From Chthoniobacteraceae bacterium (GTDB lineage Bacteria; Verrucomicrobiota; Verrucomicrobiia; Chthoniobacterales; Chthoniobacteraceae): DNA of 14,090 bases. Positions within the stretch are counted from its first letter, which is position 1. The number at the start of each line of letters is the position of its first letter. Made by a program: the position numbers and the translations under genes. The stretch spans positions 1-14,090 of the forward strand of contig JANNWY010000324.1 of NCBI GenBank assembly GCA_031409335.1, in the 5' to 3' direction. This document shows positions 1 through 12,004 of this stretch, in pieces. The notes beneath the pieces were generated by a model, which ran no database searches, had not been told where the DNA came from, and was given only the letters and a program-made list of their open reading frames with translations.

Positions 1-67
1 TCGATCCGGGTCCGCGACCGAATAATAATGGGCCGAATGCTTGAAAAAACGGAGTGATGTTAGGCAT
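1..67 (-). CDS. N-terminus of a probable IS4-family transposase (partial)
   Basis: ATG at 67 gives MPNITPFFQAFGPLLFGRGPGS, open to the window edge and just inside the IS4-like end. Only 22 codons are visible. Confidence 0.45.
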   Translation of the reverse strand, partial: MPNITPFFQAFGPLLFGRGPGS

Positions 68-140
68 ACTTACTTACCATTAACCACCCAGCGACATTAG
101 CAGCTTTTTATCCGAAATTGCCCTTAACTTAATGCCATTC
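1..140 (-). mobile_element. End of an IS4-family-like insertion sequence extending off the left edge
   Basis: The minus strand from 140 reads GAATGGCATTAAGTTAAGG, resembling IS4-group terminal inverted repeats. A near-identical end (GAATGGCATTAATTTAAGG) occurs at 1074-1092. An ORF starts about 70 nt inside. Confidence 0.6.
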
Positions 141-155
141 AAAGCTGACCCCGTT
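141..155 (+). repeat. GACCC-site repeat, partial copy (5' part replaced by the IS end)
   Basis: AAAGCTGACCCCGTT is identical to the reverse complement of 1108-1122. Confidence 0.8.
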
Positions 156-385
156 CTTCGGACCCGCGGTGCCGTAGCCGGGAGCGCGCCAGGTTTCGGC
201 TCCGCTTCGTTCCAAGGGTCTCGCTCGACCGGAAAGTTCCCGGAAGTGCCTTCCCTCGCAGCCGTGGAGGCGGGTCGAAGCAGCGGCGACCGGTGCTCGG
301 CAGCCGCAGATTTCCCTCAGCGCAAGAATATTCTCCTGATCCCTTTCTTCGGCTTGGCGGGGAATGTGGTGCAGGACGTGATCGC

Positions 386-1054
386 CTAAGTCGCGCCTTC
401 TGGATTTGCATTCCGGGGGCGAAGCTCTTGTCCGAGCACCATGCCGTTCAAAGCCAAAGAACCGCCCTTCAGTTCGCTCGATAAAGCCGGCGTTCGATTG
501 TAAACAATAGCAAAACTGTGCTGAGGGAAACCCTGAAGAGGAACGATCTCTATTTGAGGTTCTTCCCATTTCTCGCCGCGTTTCGCGGTCATGGCTTCCT
601 TAAAGGCGAGGACATCAAGACTGCTGACGATATAGGTTTCGTAGCAGATGCCTGCCCGGGGGCCGTGATACGTTTCTCGAACGATAATCTCTTGGTATGA
701 CGGGTTGCGGTTATCCGGCTGACACAGAGCTTTGTAACCCGTGAACAGCAATTGACCATGAACAAATTCCCAGCCGCGAATCGAAAAAATAGGAGGTCTG
801 CTGCGTCGACCGCGGTGCTCCCGAGGTCCGCCTTTAATTTTCCGCGCTTGGTGGTGTGTTCCGTCCGAGTGGTAGGTAAAATGTTCGTCCCCTTCGGTTT
901 GGTGGAAGCGTACTACGATGCCTCCTTTTCCTTCATGCGCAGTAGCAATTGGGTAACGTGCCCCGCCTACTTCGATCAAGAACGAGAGATGCACAGGTTC
1001 AAGCTGTGTTTTCGCAGAGGCGTTCAGGCGACCGACTTTGAGGAAAGGGGTCAT
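386..1054 (-). CDS. Hypothetical protein (orphan-like; start uncertain, possibly GTG at 994 or 5'-truncated)
   Basis: 222-codon ORF with lower GC than the flanks and protein-like composition. The ATG at 1054 lies within a repeat duplication. Confidence 0.6.
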   Translation of the reverse strand: MTPFLKVGRLNASAKTQLEPVHLSFLIEVGGARYPIATAHEGKGGIVVRFHQTEGDEHFTYHSDGTHHQARKIKGGPREHRGRRSRPPIFSIRGWEFVHGQLLFTGYKALCQPDNRNPSYQEIIVRETYHGPRAGICYETYIVSSLDVLAFKEAMTAKRGEKWEEPQIEIVPLQGFPQHSFAIVYNRTPALSSELKGGSLALNGMVLGQELRPRNANPEGAT

Positions 1055-1073
1055 GAGGAAAGGGGTCAGTCAA
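1039..1073 (-). repeat. GACCC-site partial copy with a 15-bp tandem duplication
   Basis: TGAGGAAAGGGGTCA occurs at 1039-1053 and 1054-1068. The minus strand reads TTGACTGACCCCTTTCCTCA-TGACCCCTTTCCTCA. Confidence 0.8.
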
Positions 1074-1107
1074 GAATGGCATTAATTTAAGGCCGGTTTT
1101 CAGAGGC
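1074..1107. mobile_element. About 34-bp remnant of an IS4-like element end
   Basis: GAATGGCATTAATTTAAGG matches the reverse complement of 122-140 at 18/19 positions. It is cut off by a repeat copy at 1108. Confidence 0.55.
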
Positions 1108-1134
1108 AACGGGGTCAGCTTTAGAAAGTCGCTC
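1108..1134 (-). repeat. GACCC-site repeat, full copy
   Basis: The minus strand reads GAGCGACTTTCTAAAGCTGACCCCGTT. Confidence 0.85.
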
Positions 1135-1144
1135 AAGCGCGGCA

Positions 1145-1237
1145 GGCATTTGTGGTGTGGAAAGCATGCAATCCCCAACAATGAAATCCTTTTGGCCGCG
1201 AGGCGAGAGCGATTTTCTAAAGCGGACACTCTGTTCC
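1145..1237 (+). repeat. 93-bp direct repeat, copy 1 (gene leader plus GACCC site)
   Basis: About 83/93 identical to 5270-5362 by hand alignment. Confidence 0.9.
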
Positions 1238-1248
1238 CACTCTGTTCC
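1207..1248 (+). repeat. GACCC-site variant with an 11-bp tandem duplication
   Basis: GAGCGATTTTCTAAAGCGGACAC; CACTCTGTTCC occurs at 1227-1237 and 1238-1248. Confidence 0.85.
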
Positions 1249-1297
1249 GCAATGGAGCGTGGCCGCTTTGCGGGCGCGGCGCAAGCCGCCCCTTCAA

Positions 1298-1352
1298 CTC
1301 GTTCCCAAGCTCCAGCTTGGGAACGCACTTGTCCCCGAAGCTCTGCTTCGCC
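1298..1352 (+). repeat. REP-like double-hairpin element, left of the RAYT
   Basis: 12-bp stem CGTTCCCAAGCT-CC-AGCTTGGGAACG plus CGAAGC-TCT-GCTTCG. Inverted copies lie at 1928-1982 and 2696-2750. Confidence 0.85.
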
Positions 1353-1363
1353 AAGCTCGGCCA

Positions 1364-1919
1364 ATTCGCAGCCGCTACCATGCTCGCGAATCGGATCACG
1401 GATACTTCATCACCGCCACCGTGGTCGAATGGCTGCCCGTCTTCGCCTCCACGGCGTGCTGCGACATCGTCGTGCGATCGCTTGAATACTGCCTGCCCTG
1501 AGCGAAGTCGAATGGGCCGCGAGCACAAAGGGCTGGCCATCTATGCGTGGGTCATCCTCGACAATCATCTCCACGCCATCCTCGCCGCGCCCGATCTCTC
1601 CGCCGTCCTGCGCGATCTGAAGAGCTTCACCGCCAAACAACTCGTCGAGCAGATCAAGGTCGAACGCCGCGAATGGTTGCTCCATCAGCTTCGGCATTAC
1701 CAGGCTGCGCACAAACCGAACGAATATCAGCTCTGGCAGGAGGGGTCGCATCCGCAGCGCATTCTGCGCGATGAGATGATGGAGCAAAAACGGGCATATC
1801 TGCACCACAACCCGGTAAAGCGCGGGTGGGTCAGCGAGCCGGAGCATTGGCGCTGCTCATCGGCGCACGCGTGGATGCCGGGCGCGCAGCCGATGTTGCG
1901 GTGCGATCCGTGGAGATAG
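1364..1919 (+). pseudogene. REP-associated tyrosine transposase (RAYT/TnpA-REP, Y1 HUH family), frameshifted
   Basis: Frame 1 reads (I)RSRY...YFITATVVEWLPVF...SLEYC. Frame 2 reads REHKGLAIYAWVILDNHLHAI (HUH)...RDLKSFTAK...LWQEGSHP...YLHHNPVKRG (catalytic Tyr)...WRCSSA. Removing 25 nt (1493-1517) rejoins the frames. The expected ATG reads ATT. Inverted REPs flank the gene. Confidence 0.9.
1493..1517 (+). mobile_element. 25-nt micro-insertion (TGAGC..GTCGAA type) disrupting the RAYT
   Basis: CTGCCCTGAGCGAAGTCGAATGGGC lies between the codons TGC and CGC; excising it restores the frame. Confidence 0.75.
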
Positions 1920-1990
1920 CGTGCCGCGGCGAAGCAGAGCTTCGAGGAAAAGTGCGTGCCCAAGCTGGAGCTTGGGCACGAGTTAAAAAA
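1834..1990 (+). repeat. About 155-bp direct repeat, copy 1 (RAYT 3' end plus REP)
   Basis: About 95% identical to 2602-2757 by hand alignment. Confidence 0.9.
1928..1982 (-). repeat. REP-like element, right of the RAYT (inverted)
   Basis: GGCGAAGCAGAGCTTCG...CGTGCCCAAGCTGGAGCTTGGGCACGAG. Confidence 0.85.
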
Positions 1991-1994
1991 CCCT

Positions 1995-2333
1995 TCACAG
2001 AGCGAAGAGTGCGCGGAGTCGTTGCTGGACTTGAGCTTGGAGGTTCGGTGTCAGCGAACCCAACTGCCGCTGAATGATTGTGGAGGAAACCGTCACCATT
2101 CGATGCAGGCGCAATGCAGAGCGGACCCGCAACCCCGCGCGTGCGAAATCTGCGCTGCCCGGGTCGAGCAACACATCGGTCGGTTCCAGTGTGGGCGGCA
2201 CGGCGCTCGTGATGAAGGCAAGCACCACATGACGATGCTGGCCTGCTGCGTCGGTAAGACATACCGCTGGCCTGACCTTGCTGCCGGAGAGGTCGTCGAA
2301 CGGAAACGGAACCAGGACAACCCTATACCGCAT
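1995..2333 (-). CDS. PemK/MazF-family type II toxin
   Basis: MRYRVVLVPFPFDDLSGSKVRPAVCL...AFITS...GLRVRSALRLHRMVTV...LGSL carries the MazF-type motifs. It is 112 aa and overlaps the upstream small gene. Confidence 0.9.
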   Translation of the reverse strand: MRYRVVLVPFPFDDLSGSKVRPAVCLTDAAGQHRHVVLAFITSAVPPTLEPTDVLLDPGSADFARAGLRVRSALRLHRMVTVSSTIIQRQLGSLTPNLQAQVQQRLRALFAL

Positions 2334-2562
2334 CGCGGAAAGGCTCGCCGTCGGCTGATGTGTAGATGTCTTCGGCAGGGTCGGCAAGAAACGCGAAAGC
2401 ATCGCTGGACGCCGCTGCCCGCAGCCAAACATCCTCGGAATCCGTGTCGGACGTGGAAGGAAGCAGCGTCACCATGAGGCTGGCGTTGGCGGGCAGGTCA
2501 TACGGCTCATCGAGAACGATGTGCTCGCCGTCGTAGTGGGCTTGAAGTGCTACCGTAGGCAT
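2323..2562 (-). CDS. Putative antitoxin of the MazF-type toxin
   Basis: 79-aa acidic protein (MPTVALQAHYDGEHIVLDEPYDLP...EDIYTSADGEPF) overlapping the toxin start. Confidence 0.8.
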   Translation of the reverse strand: MPTVALQAHYDGEHIVLDEPYDLPANASLMVTLLPSTSDTDSEDVWLRAAASSDAFAFLADPAEDIYTSADGEPFRDAV

Positions 2563-2601
2563 AATCCAAGATGATACCGGGCTTTCCGTTTCAGGGCAAG
2601 C

Positions 2602-2757
2602 GCGAGCCGGAGCATTGGCGCTACTCGTCGGCGCACGAGTGGATGCCGGGCGCGCAGCCGATGTTGCGGTGCGATCCGTGGAGGCAGCGTGCTGCGGCGA
2701 AGCAGAGCTTCGGGGAAAAGTGCGTGCCCAAGCTGGAGCTTGGGTACGAGTAAAAAA
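2602..2757 (+). repeat. About 155-bp direct repeat, copy 2 (RAYT C-terminal fragment plus REP at 2696-2750)
   Basis: Encodes EPEHWRYSSAHEWMPGAQPMLRCDPWR, followed by a REP palindrome. Confidence 0.9.
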
Positions 2758-2831
2758 GCCTGCCTCGTCCGAGGCGTGTTTGAATCTTTTCGCCTCAGCA
2801 GGCCGCCCGATCAAATTCCTTGTGTCACGAT

Positions 2832-2863
2832 GAGCGAGATTCTAAAGCTGACCCTCTGCTTCT
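2832..2863 (+). repeat. GACCC-site repeat, full copy
   Basis: GAGCGAGATTCTAAAGCTGACCCTCTGCTTCT, 28/32 identical to 4219-4250. Confidence 0.9.
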
Positions 2864-3136
2864 CGCGATGTCATGACCAGTAGCGACGCGGGCAAGGCCA
2901 ATGATGCCATTCCAGATGAAGCGGTGCTGCGGTTTGCCATCGGGAACGGCCGTGCGGTGATTACGCACAACCGCCGGGATTTCCTGCGCCTGCATGGCCG
3001 GAATCCGGACCACGAAGGCATCATTGTCTGCACGGACAATCCCGACTTCCCCGCGCTCGCAGCGAAAGTCCACGCCCGGCTTCACGCGATGGAATCTCTC
3101 AAGGGCCAGTTGCTGCGGATCAATCGCGGAGAGTAA
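2864..3136 (+). pseudogene. 5'-truncated DUF5615-like PIN-domain toxin
   Basis: DVMTSSDAGKANDAIPDEAVLRFAIGNGRAVITHNRRDFLRLH...HEGII. The N-terminal 'DEN' strand and helix are absent, and the frame is closed upstream at 2831. It begins immediately after the repeat. Confidence 0.75.
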
Positions 3137-3213
3137 CCCGCCACCTTCGTGAAGTAGCAAGAGCGCCTGAAATCCCGTGCCCGAGTGGCTATGGAGACAT
3201 CGACCCTGAAAGT

Positions 3214-3245
3214 GAGCGAGATTCTAAAACCGACCCCATCTCCGC
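3214..3245 (+). repeat. GACCC-site repeat, full copy
   Basis: GAGCGAGATTCTAAAACCGACCCCATCTCCGC; 3217-3245 is identical to 4012-4040. Confidence 0.9.
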
Positions 3246-4011
3246 CCCCCGCCGCCACGCTGCTGCCAGCACGTCGGCGCGTTGCACTTCTCCATACAGA
3301 CTCCAAAACCGATACTCCGGCTTGGACTTCGCTTTCCGATACAGGGTGATTTGCAGTTGCCGGACTTTGTCGGGTGCTGTTAGCCCTCGCGGGCCGTCAC
3401 CACCGAGGCGGCGGCGCCCGGGACAAGCGGTGGCAGGGTGTCTCGGGCGAGCCGTCCTTCCGTGCGCTTCCCGCCTGCGGAACAAGTGGCGTCCCTTCGC
3501 TCCTCCGCGGGTTCTCCGAACCAGAGGTCCGGCGCGGGATCATCACTACTACGAACGCCTCCGACTCCTGCCACGGCCCGCGCAGCCTTCCCCTTTGCAG
3601 GGGTTGTGCCGCCAGTTGAGTCTTCTTTACTCGCCATGACAGGTTTGCCTCGGATTTAGGAGAATGTTAGCGAGGCTATCTCCGCTGCGCTCCGGTTCCC
3701 CGCTTACCCGCGCTTCACTTCCCGGCATGTCGCCCACGCCGACCCCGCCGGTCCATTGTCAAAACCCACGACGATTGATTCGGGTTCCGACTCTTCGGCC
3801 TTCGCCCAATCTCGAGGGGCTCGGCTGCCGGGATGACTTTTTCGAGGCTCATTTATGTGGTTCATATGTTCATTGCGACCTGCTGGTTCGACTCCATGCC
3901 TGCTCCCCACCCCGCCTCGCGGCGACGCAGTTGGCACGGTCTTCGGTGCTGAACCGTCTAATTGCACCGACGGGACTTTCACCCGCGTTGAGGCGCGCTT
4001 TGCGGGCGCAC
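3246..4011 (-). mobile_element. Group II intron, 5' fragment (approximately domains I-III and the start of the IEP; domains V/VI absent)
   Basis: Starts GTGCGCCCG at 4011, followed by GGGTGAAAGTCCC. It has DII/DIII-like GGAGTCGGAGGCGTTCGTAGTAG...GGAGCGAAGGGACGCC and then an RT N-terminal coding sequence. Confidence 0.9.
3250..3383 (-). pseudogene. N-terminal fragment of a group II intron reverse transcriptase/maturase
   Basis: LTAPDKVRQLQITLYRKAKSKPEYRFWSLYGEVQRADVLAAAWRR, cut off just before the expected 'N.GAPGVDG' motif by the repeat copy. Confidence 0.85.
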
Positions 4012-4040
4012 CGAGATTCTAAAACCGACCCCATCTCCGC
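4012..4040 (+). repeat. GACCC-site repeat split by the intron (the intron's 5' exon)
   Basis: CGAGATTCTAAAACCGACCCCATCTCCGC lacks the leading GAG, which is replaced by the intron 5' end. Confidence 0.9.
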
Positions 4041-4043
4041 TCC

Positions 4044-4205
4044 GCCCTCACCCACTCCGGCAGCAACACGATGTGGATGGCCGTCGCTTGGATCGCCCCC
4101 GCGAAAGACTTCGCCGTCCTCGTCGCCTGCAACCAGGCCAGCGACAAGGCCTGCAACGACGCCGTCCTCACCCTCATCGCCGACCATTTCAAGGACGAGC
4201 GGTAA
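4044..4205 (+). pseudogene. C-terminal fragment of a serine hydrolase (beta-lactamase/AmpC-like family)
   Basis: ALTHSGSNTMWMAVAWIAPAKDFAVLVACNQASDKACNDAVLTLI...* shows the H-S-G triad and the terminal strand and helix. It is not in the ORF track and starts right after the repeat. Confidence 0.7.
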
Positions 4206-4218
4206 TCGTCTTGCGAGT

Positions 4219-4250
4219 GATCGAACTTCTAAAGCTAACCCTCTGCTTCT
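4219..4250 (+). repeat. GACCC-site repeat variant
   Basis: GATCGAACTTCTAAAGCTAACCCTCTGCTTCT. Confidence 0.85.
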
Positions 4251-4546
4251 TGGAGAGAGAATTTTTGGTCAGCACCGGGAACCTTGGAAATCTTATCCAC
4301 TTGATTCTGTGTCAGGTGGACGACGGGCAGTTTCGTTACAGCAGTCGGGGGTGGATATGAAGGCGGTAGCGATAGGATGGAGACATAGGCTGCCTTGCCG
4401 CGTCGCAAGGTTCTTACATAGAATTGTCCTGTGCCTGATATGGGAATTCCGTCAACCAAGATGTCAAAATCAACCTCCCCGTTCTTCAAATCAGCAGCAG
4501 GGAGGTGTTCAGGTAGCGTAACAATAAAACGATCATCAGTTTTCAT
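4235..4546 (-). CDS. Hypothetical protein (103 aa; stop codon lies inside the repeat)
   Basis: Low-GC ORF, co-oriented with the two upstream genes; possibly 3'-truncated. Confidence 0.6.
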   Translation of the reverse strand: MKTDDRFIVTLPEHLPAADLKNGEVDFDILVDGIPISGTGQFYVRTLRRGKAAYVSILSLPPSYPPPTAVTKLPVVHLTQNQVDKISKVPGADQKFSLQEAEG

Positions 4547-4576
4547 ATATTAGGCGTTGGTATTGTGTCGAGGGTG

Positions 4577-5014
4577 CTAGCGGCGAACATAGATGGCGGT
4601 CCCTTGAAGCTGCGCCTGTGAGTTGTGCCCGCCGACTAGCGCAATCGTTGATGCACCTGCCGCCCCGATCATACCGTTCAACGTGCTGCCTGCATTTACG
4701 GAGTTCAGGATAATGCCGTTGGCACCAAGGGAAGCCGCCTGCTTGCGTAACTCATCCACCGCATTTTGGCTGTCGGACTGTTGGGTAAGCCCATTGACGG
4801 AGCGGGACGTGACGATGCCAACGACTTCATACGGCACGGTCGGTGGCTGCGGATAGACGGTAACGCTCATGGGAATGATGGCAGAGCGGCGGTTGCCCGT
4901 AAGGATAGCCGAACCGGTGGCACCGCACCCCTGCAAAAAGGTGGCAGCGCATAAAATGAAAACAACGCGCTGGATTGATTGCAATGGGAGTTTCGTGAAC
5001 GAAATCTGATTCAT
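4577..5014 (-). CDS. Putative lipoprotein, YbjQ/DUF4156-like
   Basis: Signal peptide with lipobox FLQG-C; PYEVVGIV...AVDELRKQAASLGANGIIL pattern; ATGA overlap with the upstream gene at 5011-5014. Confidence 0.7.
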   Translation of the reverse strand: MNQISFTKLPLQSIQRVVFILCAATFLQGCGATGSAILTGNRRSAIIPMSVTVYPQPPTVPYEVVGIVTSRSVNGLTQQSDSQNAVDELRKQAASLGANGIILNSVNAGSTLNGMIGAAGASTIALVGGHNSQAQLQGTAIYVRR

Positions 5015-5292
5015 GGTTCGAGGACGGGTTGCCACTGCTTTTTGTTTGAAAACTGATAGGTGCTAAGGATGTAAGTGGTGCCTGTCCAAGTGTCGATGCG
5101 AAACGTGTCCGACTCTGTTGCGTGGAGTTGGTAACGATTGCCGACGGCCAAATAGCACAGGGCACTTGTCACAATGCCAATCATCATGCCGCAAAGTGTG
5201 GTAAAGACATAGCGAACGACAGGAGTCTTCGGTGGGGATAAATCAGTTGTAGCGTCCTCCTGTGATGCTGGCATTTGTGGTGTGGAAGGCAT
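5011..5292 (-). CDS. Small single-pass membrane protein
   Basis: Hydrophobic segment YVFTTLCGMMIGIVTSALCYLAV followed by RYQL...FRIDTWTGTTY; coupled to the downstream lipoprotein. Confidence 0.65.
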   Translation of the reverse strand: MPSTPQMPASQEDATTDLSPPKTPVVRYVFTTLCGMMIGIVTSALCYLAVGNRYQLHATESDTFRIDTWTGTTYILSTYQFSNKKQWQPVLEP

Positions 5293-5362
5293 GCGTTTAC
5301 CAACAATGAAATCCTTTTGGCGGCGAGGCGAGAGCGATTTTTAAAAGCTGACCCTCTGTTCC
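5270..5362 (+). repeat. 93-bp direct repeat, copy 2, including the GACCC site at 5332-5362
   Basis: The site reads GAGCGATTTTTAAAAGCTGACCCTCTGTTCC; the whole segment matches 1145-1237. Confidence 0.9.
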
Positions 5363-5381
5363 GCACTCCTGACCGGCAAAC

Positions 5382-5595
5382 TCAGCAGATGAGCCAGGGC
5401 CGGAGCACCAGTTTGCGCACGCCGGGGCGGCGGCGCACGGGGCCGCCGCGATGCGGCAGGCGGGAGGGTTTCGGCCTGGTCGAGCAGGCGCGTGCCGAGC
5501 CGCCCGGCGGCGGCGGGATCGCGCGGGGCGATGTCACGGACGATCTGCTCGAGATCGGCGAGGGCGAGCGTGCCGGGGATTACTTTGTCATCCAT
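5382..5595 (-). pseudogene. RelE/ParE-family toxin, frameshifted and 3'-truncated
   Basis: MDDKVI...ALADLEQIVRDIA..DPAAAGRLGTRLLDQAETL, frameshift, then RLPHRGGPVRRRPGVRKLVLRPWLIC*. The final ParE strands are missing. Confidence 0.75.
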
Positions 5596-5798
5596 CCGGC
5601 GAGGCGCTGGCGCGCTTCCTCGATCGTCACGCCGGGGCCGGTTTCCATCGACGCAATGCCGGCGTCGATGGCGGCGAGCATTTCGGGCGTCTCGTCGATC
5701 TCCAAGCCGGCGTCGAGCAAGACGAGACGGCGGAGGATGGTTTGCCGTTCGCCGTCGTCGAGGCGGGGCAGTTCATCGAGGATTTCGGTCATGCTCAT
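5580..5798 (-). CDS. Putative antitoxin (addiction-module type)
   Basis: 72-aa acidic protein (MSMTEILDELPRL...LAAIDAGIASMETGPGVTIEEARQRL) overlapping the ParE start. Confidence 0.75.
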   Translation of the reverse strand: MSMTEILDELPRLDDGERQTILRRLVLLDAGLEIDETPEMLAAIDAGIASMETGPGVTIEEARQRLAGWMTK

Positions 5799-6012: not shown

Positions 6013-7797
6013 ATGCGAATTCCCATCCTTCTCTCGCTCTTCGCCCTCACCACTTCACTCTATGCCGCGCTTCCGACTTACGATCACATCGTCGTCGTCG
6101 TGGAGGAAAATAAGTCGCGCACGCAAATCATCGGAAATACCGCGGAGGCTCCGTTCCTCAACGCGCTCGCCCGACGTGGCGTGTCGCTCACGAACATGGC
6201 GGGGATCACGCATCCGAGTCAGCCGAACTATCTGGAGATGTTCAGCGGGGATTCGCAGGGCGTGCAGAGTAACAACAAGCCGGGCGGTCTCCCTTTCACC
6301 ACGCCAAATCTGGCGGCGGCACTGATCGCGGCGGGGAAGACTTTCATCGGCTACGCGGAAGACCTGCCGGCAGCGGGGGATGCGGATACCGTAAAGACCA
6401 TCTATCCAGATGGACGGGATCGTTATGCGCGAAAGCATGTGCCTTGGACGAACTGGCAGAGCAGCGCAAATCCGCTGCCGCCCAACGCGCTGCCGCCTTC
6501 GGTGAATCAGCCGTTCAGCGCGTTCCCCACCGATTTTACTCTGCTCCCGGATGTCGCGTTCGTGATTCCCAATGAATCGCACGACATGCACAGCGGCGTG
6601 GATCGCGTGCGCGTGGGCGATCGCTGGCTGGCGGGGCGGCTCGCGGCGTATGCGAGCTGGGCGTTGGCGAATAATTCGCTGCTGATCGTGACGTGGGATG
6701 AGGATGATTCGCGGTCGGGAAATCAGATTCCGACCGTGTTTTACGGCGCCCATCTGCGGGTGGGCGACAATGAGGGGGCGTGGACGCTGCATCATTTGCT
6801 GAGGACGCTCACGGATCTGACGGGGATCGCACCGATGGGGCGCGCGGTGGAGGTTTCGCGGATCGCGGGAATTTTCACGGGGGATGAGCCGGTGATGACG
6901 CGGACTTTCCGACAGGGCGCGACGTATCGGGGGACGCTGGATGTGACGCTGCGGGAGGCTGCGCCGAATGATCCGATCGCGACGACGGTGAAGGGCGTGG
7001 TGGGGATGTCACCAGTTTCGGGGGTCGAGGATCAGGTGTTGTTGCGCTTCGACAATATTTTCGGCCCGACTCCGCAGCAATTGCCCACCGACGCGACGGT
7101 CGTCTCGGCGCAGCTCCGCTTGCAGACGGGGTCGGCGGTGGCAGTGGATGGGACGACACAACTGGTGGCGCTGCATCGGATGCGGATTCCGTTTAGCGCG
7201 GCTTCGACGTGGAATACTTTCGCGGGCGGTGTGGATACGGACGACGTGGAGGCGGAGGCGTCCGCGGAGTTCACGGCGACGCCGCGTTTTGCGAACGATG
7301 TCGCGCGCTTCGATGTCACCCCGACGCTGCTGGATATTGCCGCCGGTGGATCCAACGACGGGTGGCTCGTGAAGCTGGCCGGCACGGATTCGTGGCGCTT
7401 TGTGCTGTCTGAAAGTACCACGAGCATCGCCGGTCGCCCGACGCTGCACGTGACGGTGGCCGCGAGCGAGCTGTCGCTGGATTCCACGCTCGTGCGCGTG
7501 AATGAAAACGCGGGCAGCGTCGCCATCACCGTGCATCGTACTGGCGCGCTGGATGCCGTGGCGACGGTCGATATCATCACGCTCGATGGGACGGCGATCG
7601 GTGGCAGCGATTTCACATCGCGGAGCGGGACGCTCATCTGGCCCGCCGGTGATGCGACCGATCAGACGCTCGTGATCCCGATCCGCAACAACGCGCCGAT
7701 CGAAGGCCGCGAAACTTTCACCGTGAAACTGCGCGCCCCGGCGGGCATCGGAAAGATCGGCGCAATCCGGCAGACGACGGTGGTGATCCTGGAATAG
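6013..7797 (+). CDS. Secreted phosphoesterase/acid phosphatase with DNRLRE-like and Calx-beta domains
   Basis: Signal peptide from ATG 6013; DHIVVVVEENKS, THPSQPNY, YARKHVPW, HDMH and LLIVTWDEDD motifs; LLRFD..SAQLRL..TWN..GW..RPTL; C-terminal VNENAG...DGTA..GSDF...ETFTVKL. Confidence 0.85.
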   Translation: MRIPILLSLFALTTSLYAALPTYDHIVVVVEENKSRTQIIGNTAEAPFLNALARRGVSLTNMAGITHPSQPNYLEMFSGDSQGVQSNNKPGGLPFTTPNLAAALIAAGKTFIGYAEDLPAAGDADTVKTIYPDGRDRYARKHVPWTNWQSSANPLPPNALPPSVNQPFSAFPTDFTLLPDVAFVIPNESHDMHSGVDRVRVGDRWLAGRLAAYASWALANNSLLIVTWDEDDSRSGNQIPTVFYGAHLRVGDNEGAWTLHHLLRTLTDLTGIAPMGRAVEVSRIAGIFTGDEPVMTRTFRQGATYRGTLDVTLREAAPNDPIATTVKGVVGMSPVSGVEDQVLLRFDNIFGPTPQQLPTDATVVSAQLRLQTGSAVAVDGTTQLVALHRMRIPFSAASTWNTFAGGVDTDDVEAEASAEFTATPRFANDVARFDVTPTLLDIAAGGSNDGWLVKLAGTDSWRFVLSESTTSIAGRPTLHVTVAASELSLDSTLVRVNENAGSVAITVHRTGALDAVATVDIITLDGTAIGGSDFTSRSGTLIWPAGDATDQTLVIPIRNNAPIEGRETFTVKLRAPAGIGKIGAIRQTTVVILE

Positions 7798-10613: not shown

Positions 10614-10637
10614 GAGCGACCTGGGCTAACCCTTTTC
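10614..10637 (+). repeat. Degenerate GACCC-site-like sequence
   Basis: GAGCGAC-CTGG-GCTAACCCTTTTC has both half-motifs, but the spacer is shorter than consensus. Confidence 0.4.
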
Positions 10638-10669
10638 CCCCACGACATAGCTGGGCGACGCCGTCGAGG

Positions 10670-11024
10670 GGCTTCGAGGCCCTCGCCCCACTGGTGCCAC
10701 GGCGCGAACGCTCTGCGCGCCAGCGCCTTCCCTTTCCACCCCGGAGCGCTCACCGGCTAGCCGCCGGAGCGGCAATTCCGCGCGCGGTGTGAACGCCGGG
10801 CGATAGATCGCGCGAGCCAGCGGCGCACGCAGTTCGTCGGCGAAGAACGCCGGCGGATTGGCGACTATGTTGAAGATCTCGGCCTCAAGCCTTTCGACAA
10901 GCTCATGACCTGACGGCAGCGCGCCGTCATTGCCCTGGGCGATGAAGTTCTGGATGAACTCGTGCGCGAGCTTGATCGGCTCGCCGACAGGCACGCCGAG
11001 GCGGATGAGGTCTTTGGTGTTCAT
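10670..11024 (-). pseudogene. rtcB: N-terminal fragment of an RtcB-family RNA ligase, with two insertions
   Basis: MNTKDLIRLGVPVGEPIKLAHEFIQNFIAQG...LARAIYRPAFTPRAEL, then in another frame APWHQWGEGLEA. This resembles, from recall, the N-terminal extension of PVC-group RtcB. The catalytic MPDAH region is absent. Confidence 0.55.
10890..10916 (-). mobile_element. 27-nt in-frame micro-insertion (TGAGC..GTCGAA type)
   Basis: CCGTCAGGTCATGAGCTTGTCGAAAGG (PSGHELVER) shares its core with 1493-1517. Boundaries are inferred. Confidence 0.55.
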
Positions 11025-11204
11025 GGTGTGGTTCGTTTGAAAATGGCGGGCGCAGCGTGCGGACACACTTCGAGTGCGCAGCGGTGTTTGTTCTTTTTGT
11101 CGTCGGTAAAGATCGCCCTTGGGGAGAAGTGTGAAGCTCTTCTAACCTGCGCGCTTGATGCACAAAATCGAAAGTCAGCTTCGCGAAGAGAAAGAACCGT
11201 CGCT

Positions 11205-11624
11205 GTGATCCGCGCCGTCCTCGATACCAATGTCCTCGATTCCGCTTTTCGCTCCAGTCGCGGCTACTCGTTCGATGTCTTCGTCGCTTTGCGACAAGAC
11301 CGCTGGCGTGCCGTCCTCAGCAATCACCTTATCCACGAGTATGAGGAAATCCTGAAAGCGCACGCTGCTGAACTCGGCCTTGCTCTCGCGGAGATCGACA
11401 CGTTGCTCGATGCCATCTGTGCTCGTGCGGAAGAGTGGCAACTCGCTGCGGGCTGGCTTCCCATTCTCGCCGATCCCGACGATGAACCGCTCGTCCAACT
11501 CGCCTACGACTCCGCCGCCCGCCGTATCGTCACCCACAACGTGCGCCATCTCGCGCCCGCCCGCGCTCTGACCATCGCAGTCTTGCTGCCCCGCGAGTTC
11601 GCAGCCATGATTCCCACGCCATGA
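11205..11624 (+). CDS. PIN-domain putative toxin
   Basis: GTG start; IRAVLDTNV...EYEEIL...DPDDEPLVQLA...IVTHNVRH. Confidence 0.85.
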   Translation: MIRAVLDTNVLDSAFRSSRGYSFDVFVALRQDRWRAVLSNHLIHEYEEILKAHAAELGLALAEIDTLLDAICARAEEWQLAAGWLPILADPDDEPLVQLAYDSAARRIVTHNVRHLAPARALTIAVLLPREFAAMIPTP

Positions 11625-11854
11625 CGATCCAGGTCACACTGCCCGATAGCCTCGCCGCGCAAGCGCGCGAACTCGCCACCCGCGAGCACATCACCGTGGA
11701 TGCCCTCGTGGCCAGCGCCCTCACCGCGCAACTCGATCACACTCCGCAACGCCCCACCATCGCGGAGCGCGCCGCCCGAGTTAATTGGGAAGCGGTGGAC
11801 GCCATCCTTGCTCGCGTTCCGGACGTGCCCCCGGTGCCGGGTGACGAGCGGTAG
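11621..11854 (+). CDS. Putative ribbon-helix-helix antitoxin (downstream of the toxin)
   Basis: MTIQVTLPDSLAAQARELATREHITVDALVASAL; ATGA overlap with the PIN gene. Confidence 0.8.
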   Translation: MTIQVTLPDSLAAQARELATREHITVDALVASALTAQLDHTPQRPTIAERAARVNWEAVDAILARVPDVPPVPGDER

Positions 11855-11858
11855 CGTT

Positions 11859-12004
11859 TCCGACGTCCCCATGCCCTTCTCGGCGCCTGCCTCCTCCGCA
11901 TGTCCGAACTCTGGCCCGAAGCCCCCGTCTTCACCCTCGACTCCGATTTCCGCGCCTATCGCCGCAACAAGCGCCAGTCGCTGCCGCTGATCTGCCCGTC
12001 GTAA
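11859..12004 (+). pseudogene. C-terminal fragment of a VapC-like PIN toxin
   Basis: SDVPM, frameshift, ACLLRMSELWPEAPVFTLDSDFRAYRRNKRQSLPLICPS*. Not in the ORF track. Confidence 0.7.

Follow-up and report, generated by a model that had tools for sequence, protein, structure and literature searches.

The stretch of DNA analysed here (hereafter the window, 14,090 nt) is the start of contig C324 (JANNWY010000324.1) in the assembly GCA_031409335.1 of a Chthoniobacteraceae bacterium (7.9 Mb in 326 contigs, 98% complete). The part between positions 1 and 5798 is a mosaic: two remnants of REP-associated tyrosine transposase (RAYT) genes, toxin and antitoxin genes, a 5'-truncated PIN gene, the 3' fragment of a serine hydrolase gene and a piece of a group II intron alternate with copies of a short polar motif, which is almost certainly the terminal inverted repeat (TIR) of TIRtrons, as detailed below. 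Solo TIR ends stacked around a single two-ended miniature TIRtron make up the arrangement, which has also been struck by an insertion sequence (IS) of the IS4 type and by the group II intron (Table 1). A reading made from the sequence alone had seen in this mosaic a candidate non-integron system for DNA capture and shuffling, built on a recurring polar motif. The recurrence is real: the pattern CGANNYTCTARAGCTGACCC has seven matches in the window with at most three mismatches, as compared to a mean of 0.01 in 200 shuffled sequences, and two partial copies accompany them.

Table 1. Coordinates of the array features in the window (ORF, open reading frame; RT, reverse transcriptase)
Feature	Position	Strand	Basis
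Matches to the motif	1112-1131; 1210, 2835, 3217, 4012, 4222, 5335	- (first); + (others)	pattern CGANNYTCTARAGCTGACCC
Partial motif copies	141-151; 1039-1073	+; -	sequence
End of multicopy IS4-subgroup element; inverted repeat 123-140	1-140	-	near-identical ends at four other contig termini; relatives encode IS4-family transposase
Outer 11 nt of TIR (probable IS4 target duplication) and short tail	141-159	+	identical 11-mer before the other IS4 end on C35
Orphan ORF, 5' part beside left-facing TIR	386-1038	-	one homologue only, 90% identical, 176 aa
Left-facing TIR end of another TIR family; exact 15-nt tandem duplication 1039-1053/1054-1068, IS4-type end next	1039-1073	-	sequence
Left end of IS4-type miniature element, cut by next TIR	1074-1105	+	84% to complete small element on C295
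Two-ended miniature TIRtron; TIRs 1111-1135 and 1206-1229	1111-1229	.	inverted pair; hairpin z = -4.0
Exact 11-nt tandem duplication across TIR tip, without microhomology	1227-1248	+	
Broken RAYT gene (1380-1919) within its own 60-nt inverted repeats	1293-1987	+	NCBIfam NF047646, E 3.7e-19, below cut-off
PemK/MazF toxin gene and probable antitoxin gene, cargo	1995-2570	-	Pfam PF02452; antitoxin from position only
Second RAYT 3' end and its repeat	2602-2751	+	94% to 1834-1992
TIR and tail; junction 2865/2866	2831-2865	+	
DUF5615 PIN gene, 5'-truncated	2866-3136	+	Pfam profile positions 23-109 of 110; intact paralogue on C288, 88%
TIR and tail	3213-3249	+	
Group II intron, 5' 762 nt, within a TIR; RT gene cut at next TIR junction	3250-4011	-	Rfam RF02005
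Outer part of intron-split TIR and tail	4012-4043	+	97% to 3217-3248
Beta-lactamase-like serine hydrolase 3' fragment, then TIR (4218-4241) and tail	4039-4250	+	86% over 218 nt to C35 gene-TIR-tail
Lower-GC cargo (52%), three ORFs, one DUF4156/YbjQ-like	4251-5266	-	
Right part of miniature TIRtron, TIR 5331-5354 and tail, without left TIR	5267-5362	+	89% to 1142-1237
ParE toxin gene, 3' end cut by TIR junction, and antitoxin gene	5360-5798	-	92% to C107

Identity of the repeated motif

Read on the opposite strand, the motif starts GGGGTCAG in its best copies (some are one base off), and this strand fits the GGGGWSAS core of the TIRs of TIRtrons, elements in which a Y1/HUH gene, TIRYT, lies between two such repeats (Di Nocera, De Gregorio and Rocco 2013, PMC3733652). 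The same class appears as TnpA-Y1 subclass 2.1, the second largest TnpA-Y1 group with 14.9% of strains (Quentin et al. 2018, PMC6006769), and as group 1 RAYT in a study that, in its accessible text, treats it by distribution only (Bertels et al. 2017, PMC5581495). On contig C38 of a relative (G006, locus L017), inverted motif copies 1.06 kb apart enclose the gene of an intact 328-aa Y1_Tnp protein, P0001, the stop codon of which is a TGA inside the motif. The NHYH, FQ, YIHLNP and SS motifs of P0001 (residues 59, 97–99, 121 and 143) match subclass 2.1 in Table 1 of PMC6006769; its C-terminal extension is long, although Pfam returns Y1_Tnp only, the trait of the subclass being a C-terminal helix-turn-helix. 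A search by sequence found no solved structure matching P0001. The present genome carries a frameshifted TIRYT gene with motif-type TIRs on C257 and TIRYT fragments on C38, C59, C95 and C221.

Judged from these sequence matches, the assignment of the motif to TIRtron TIRs is about as secure as a comparison of this kind can make it, and, since the motif is already the end of a named element class, there is no new capture system here. What the sequence-only reading had put forward as one candidate, the end of an HUH/Y1 transposase element acted upon in trans, is borne out to the extent that the motif does end a TIRYT gene, and the search it had proposed for a Y1/HUH gene carrying the motif at its end returned the intact and the frameshifted genes described above. 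Two of its other points hold in part. The site is non-palindromic as a single copy; as an element end, it is one arm of an inverted pair, and the miniature at 1111–1229 folds. Likewise, no cognate enzyme is encoded in the window, yet a Y1 gene is present: the broken RAYT gene at 1380–1919, which we rejected as the cognate enzyme because it has unrelated 60-nt inverted repeats of its own.

With 62 seed sites as its basis, a profile of the TIR detects 50 sites genome-wide, as compared to six in the reversed control. Seven of these are located on C324 and six on C107, while 50 sites placed randomly give at most four per 6 kb (2000 trials); the clustering looked for by the sequence-only reading is therefore present. 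The copies occur singly, in pairs and in groups, as is also known for TIRtron TIRs (PMC3733652). A wider TIR pattern matches 46 of 151 genomes of the family, this one included, the TIRYT loci found carry mostly Verrucomicrobia labels, and a viral collection yielded a single match to the pattern.

Junctions, scars and insertions at the TIR

Comparison with more complete copies places the breakpoints close to the TIR tip. Homology of the PIN/DUF5615 gene to C288 starts at 2866 (+12 after GACCC), that of the serine hydrolase to C35 at 4039 (+8) and that of ParE to C107 at 5360 (+6), while the homology of the intron to relatives ends at 3250 (+14); the IS4-type end that starts at 1074 matches C295 up to 1105 only, adjoining the TIR that begins at 1111. 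The switch into unrelated genes a few nucleotides past GACCC, as first read from the sequence, is thus confirmed, and so is the cut of ParE at the TIR, although it is located at +6 and not about 20 nt past the motif. The tail shares 3 nt with ParE and about 4 nt with the hydrolase at the respective junctions. The ParE module is broken reciprocally: the toxin gene is cut in the window, whereas on C107 ParE runs on and the antitoxin gene is cut 13 nt outside another TIR.

To score such breakpoints across the genome, we took the 300 nt outside the TIR at 45 sites, after exclusion of alignments that contained the TIR itself, of subjects located at the ends of contigs and of a single subject beside a TIR. 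Paralogue homology starts at +4 to +17 outside the TIR in 10 of 26 cases (p 8e-6), and in 7 of 22 (p 7e-4) once the window's own sites are removed; junctions at a near-fixed offset on one side of the motif, the one-sided signal of the sequence-only reading, therefore hold genome-wide. We also scanned the frames flanking TIRs in other genomes, where 32 of 33 coding-like frames were kept (one near-duplicate was dropped). Among the 11 with Pfam matches, the match breaks at the TIR in three only: L021 (integrase), L068 (IS110 transposase) and probably L046. In the L021 case (7008–7474), the right TIR of TIRYT is fused to mid-gene sequence of an integrase whose N-terminal domain is of the integron type; at L022 (840–890), another TIRYT gene has its right TIR fused to the interior of an attC-like site.

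Short tandem duplications mark the same position. Of 153 kept sites, 131 had enough flank, and we scored exact duplications of at least 10 nt whose second copy starts no more than 30 nt outside the TIR. Tip duplications were found at 19 of the 131 sites, as compared to 2, 1, 0 and 3 at four control positions and a mean of 0.15 in block shuffles (pooled p 1e-9); a new set of 34 sites gave four, against 0–1 in controls. The units are 9–21 nt long, and most begin within the final 13 nt of the TIR and end 5–15 nt outside (23 of 24 start between -13 and +2, while the second copy lies mostly at +5 to +15); the scars are confined to the outer side of the TIR. Nine of 12 complete duplications are without microhomology, a share that argues against homology-driven slippage but does not exceed what random joining would produce; the other three have 2–3 nt of it. 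None of 30 two-ended elements shows a target duplication: no shared flank reaches 7 nt, and the longest shared flank averages 4.1 nt, as compared to 4.05 nt for shuffled pairing. Of the refuter named in the sequence-only reading, the end of a known IS or MITE (a miniature transposable element with inverted repeats) with ordinary target duplications, the first half thus applies and the second does not. Solo ends are fused about 5–15 nt past the tip to unrelated DNA, with no target duplication and mostly without microhomology, directly visible at five junctions of the window and statistically across the genome.

Two subclass 2.3-like Y1 genes that appear intact, one on C88 (23761–23929) and one on C53, carry a GGGACAG end, immediately outside which lies a tandem duplication; on C88, the start of an IS4 transposase gene is cut at this point.

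The TIR is also a landing site. All 16 IS4-type ends in this genome, two of them in the window (1–151 and 1074–1105) and 14 elsewhere, and 9 of 12 in relatives (loci L140–L152), are flanked by an 11-mer ending C(T/C)GACC(C/T) with at most one mismatch, the background being 0.9%. These ends start with GAATGG, and in the pairs C35/C324 and C5/C46 the 11-mers beside the two ends match. By sequence, then, this element and its miniature forms appear to have the tip of TIRtron TIRs as nearly their sole insertion site, with a duplication of 11 nt ending in GACCC. The traits of the IS4 subgroup in Table 1 of PMC2266710 (-AATR ends, 10–13 bp duplication and an IS4-family transposase) are all present, with the transposase found in relatives only (NF033592, E 3e-30, split frames below cut-off). 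At L152, a TIRYT gene has the IS in its right TIR, which is of the type seen at window 1039–1073. Strong target specificity is reported for some IS4-subgroup elements in PMC2266710, the target consensus data of which may already include the TIR site. Contig C35 ends in the other IS4 end with the identical 11-mer and so probably adjoins the window on the left, continuing the array across the IS4 element. What resembles a dif/Xer site at 115–152, with two arms and a 6-nt spacer, resolves to a TIR tip joined to the IS4 end.

The intron in the window sits 21 nt inside the GGGG of a TIR, and GGGG(T/G)C lies 20–21 nt upstream of 8 of 23 intron 5' ends (background 0.05%; one unclear match dropped). 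These TIRs differ in sequence between the window (3250–4011) and L197, L200, L203–L206 and L210; at L207 and L216, the intron is located in a TIR on the other strand. Full-length introns in relatives measure ~1.95 kb. Strict TIR specificity is rejected by three other copies in this genome outside TIRs, leaving a partial preference. Targeting of TIRs by IS4 elements or introns was not found in a literature search from which subscription papers were mostly absent, and the landing of two unrelated mobile elements on the TIR makes a separate testable lead. The mosaic is, accordingly, not the work of the motif alone, as first read: part of it is due to IS4, the group II intron and RAYT landing on or near TIRs.

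As to the remaining parts of the window, the RAYT unit at 1293–1987 has an 89% copy on C214, and its gene is interrupted at 1499–1540 by a ~25-nt insertion, similar to one in a decayed TIRYT gene on C38. A small element related to the 1111–1229 miniature, sharing its flanking tails, lies on C247. The stretch 177–329 is a 150-nt non-coding repeat with two copies on C88 (83–86%), and homologue searches with the orphan ORFs at 386–1054 and 4235–4546 gave no informative homologue. Outside the array, an intact PIN_3 toxin-antitoxin pair (11205–11854, within 11036–11872) has no TIR match; upstream, at 10626–11036, lies what we take to be a short RtcB-like start, with no Pfam match.

Proposed one-ended joining and its alternatives

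Several pieces appear in more than one copy. Window 4039–4250 repeats the end of the intact hydrolase gene of C35 together with its TIR and tail, and a second same-direction stack, C107:25288–31110 (L131), has five TIRs in 5 kb with a TIR-ended unit duplicated at 93%. At L043, the 3' end of a TIRYT gene (192 nt) lies 13 nt outside a TIR; its identity is 97% to another copy and 80% to the resident one. Same-direction neighbours at L174, L176 and L178 in relatives enclose, as read by eye, apparently whole genes. Neighbouring TIRs within 3.5 kb in this genome are in the same direction in 10 cases and outward in one. The C107 stack also holds toxin-antitoxin genes, a cut sigma-factor-like gene and units duplicated at 88–95%.

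The serine hydrolase (L132:3066–4376, C35) is 80–82% identical to proteins of three genomes in two other genera and ~45% identical within its own genus, which suggests horizontal movement. A widespread cassette of hydrolase and TIR was considered and rejected: in relatives, the 260 nt that follow the gene contain no TIR core in any of 19 homologues.

Taking the junctions, scars and duplicated pieces together, we lean towards one-ended transposition of the IS91 kind, in which TIRYT, acting in trans, would nick just outside one end and join that end to unrelated DNA. In this scheme, the enzyme would bind the TIR and nick single-stranded DNA ~10 nt outside, its tyrosine staying linked to the 5' end of what is presumably the strand reading GGGGTCAG inwards, and this linked end could then be joined to any free 3'-OH. 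With the 3'-OH a few bases away, the product would be a tandem duplication of 9–21 nt; if it lay far away, or if a fragment of some other locus with a TIR end took part, a 5'-truncated and TIR-terminated segment would result, which would come to lie next to the resident TIR and point the same way. There are precedents for both halves: TnpA-REP joined an added 3'-OH oligonucleotide to the tyrosine-linked end in vitro (PMC8266576), and one-ended transposition of IS91 carries adjacent DNA without target duplication (PMC13181058). Growth of the array by such capture is plausible from the sequence comparisons. A broader and more tentative idea, on which we would not insist, is that TIRtron ends serve generally as a platform for one-ended capture, with TIRYT in trans repeatedly adding TIR-terminated DNA at the resident tip and so building polar arrays without an integrase, and with the IS4 and group II intron lineage specialised on these sites; that intact toxin-antitoxin genes and further accessory genes, drawn from other loci or from other strains, are among the pieces is a similarly tentative part of it.

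A number of observations weigh against one-ended joining by TIRYT. Both ends of the duplications vary, with no single cut site or dinucleotide, and 2 of 24 duplications show the geometry of an IS4 footprint. Two junctions in the window (2602 and 5267) have no adjoining TIR. The donors are only 86–93% identical, so that exact junction homology of long segments is unreadable. Of the remaining eight Pfam-matched frames in other genomes, three are chance matches inside intact genes, three are intact neighbours and two are unclear. In other sources, neighbours within 3.5 kb are in the same direction in eight cases versus 12 outward, although the relatives' loci were partly picked for same-strand matches. 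No intact cognate TIRYT gene is present in this assembly, and our literature search found no biochemistry of subclass 2.1.

The limited generality of the polarity among relatives fits a different account, in which TIRtrons and miniatures piled up in a hot spot and collapsed through TIR-anchored adjacent deletions by TIRYT, with nothing captured. Adjacent deletion yields identical junctions with one fixed and one variable end, and the region is indeed crowded with relics of IS4, intron and RAYT. The diverged duplicated units (hydrolase-TIR-tail, the 93% unit on C107 and the L043 piece) are left unexplained by such a collapse, as is the 10-to-1 excess of same-direction neighbours in this genome, and we consider it rather unlikely.

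The junctions could instead reflect host repair: a protein-bound TIR, or its hairpin, would block the replication fork or be nicked itself, and the pieces would then be joined to incoming DNA through a template switch or through illegitimate recombination, strand transfer by TIRYT being unnecessary. Short local duplications are typical of slippage, and the nucleotides shared with the tail at the ParE and hydrolase junctions, as well as the microhomology in three of the 12 complete duplications, would suit it. The other nine lack microhomology, the scars occupy one side of the TIR only, and no Ku gene was found in this 98% complete genome, by which end joining by Ku is rejected as well. Host repair as the source is, in our judgement, improbable.

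Misassembly at short repeats would also make a mosaic, in an assembly that is fragmented and in a window that begins at a collapsed IS end. Assembled contig pieces of two runs, X1 and X2, span the junctions at 1039–1237, 2854, 3236, 4241 and 5354 with zero differences and even depth, the two runs being from one study and one of them possibly the source sample of the assembly; the junction at 4031 is spanned by none of their pieces among the matches listed. Runs X3 and X4 cover the stretch patchily only and speak neither for nor against the mosaic. We therefore regard misassembly, the other refuter that the sequence-only reading had named, as very improbable. One X2 piece (record 10; window 2866–3359) aligns from exactly 2866, with five differences and 66 other bases ahead, and may be an allele without the 2854 junction.

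Integron attC sites carry the cores RYYYAAC and GTTRRRY in a hairpin. An integron-like array with the motif as an attC-type site for the genome's integrase can be dismissed for practical purposes, and is refuted for the motif itself: while an integrase scores above cut-off on C166 and the cargo is rich in toxin-antitoxin genes, the scanned stretch around seven motif ends contains no GTTRRRY or RYYYAAC, the two attC-like sites of the genome (C122, C274) are unrelated 127–130-nt hairpins, genes are cut mid-way and the motif ends Y1 transposase genes. Of the capture and shuffling system first proposed, what stands is therefore the one-sided joints and the non-integron nature; what does not stand is its separateness from a known TIRtron class with ordinary two-ended and miniature elements.

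What is new is the junction anatomy of TIRtron ends, the element class itself having been known since 2013. The scars predict that subclass 2.1 enzymes cut ~5–15 nt outside the TIR and that their products are one-ended joints and short duplications with no target duplication; with P0001 and its TIR, an intact enzyme-TIR pair is at hand, so that the function of this enzyme class is directly testable. If capture is true, it would be a further bacterial route to stacking accessory genes, and, if the capture platform is true, it would give a widespread class of Y1 nucleases a function and provide an HUH route to cassette-like arrays.

Comparison with known systems

The array resembles integron cassette arrays in its same-direction repeats between accessory genes, many of them toxin-antitoxin pairs, yet it differs in lacking attC cores, in having genes cut mid-way and in having no integrase at the array (the only full-length match is on C166). 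The accessible text of PMC11602168 makes no mention of RAYTs. A classical MITE of the DDE type is expected to leave a target duplication, unlike the 30 two-ended elements analysed here.

The system is most directly related to the published TIRtrons, with which it shares the Y1/HUH gene between GGGGWSAS TIRs, the single, paired and grouped copies and the NHYH, FQ, YIHLNP and SS motifs. The TIRtron and TIRYT papers, in their accessible portions, contain no junction anatomy, stacks of solo ends on cut genes, tip duplications, IS4 or intron targeting, or activity assays, and a literature search that covered few subscription papers likewise brought up nothing on one-ended TIR junctions in stacks, nor on capture or duplication at ends of this kind. 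RAYT/TnpA-REP with its REPs and REPINs (PMC8266576) is alike in protein superfamily, in cleavage near a repeat, in 3'-OH transfer and in gene-free dispersed repeats. The GTAG-footed hairpin of the REP/RAYT systems (subclasses 2.2 and 2.5) is, however, absent from the TIR alignment, and there is no C|T rule, since junction dinucleotides vary.

Finally, the oriIS and terIS ends of IS91 are distinct from each other, and its target is a fixed tetranucleotide (PMC13181058), whereas the elements described here have inverted-repeat ends and a RAYT-like Y1 protein, and their outer TIR flanks, which are pyrimidine-rich, show no fixed tetranucleotide. With IS91/ISCR they nevertheless have in common an HUH enzyme, the lack of target duplication, one fixed and one variable end, and the carriage of adjacent DNA.

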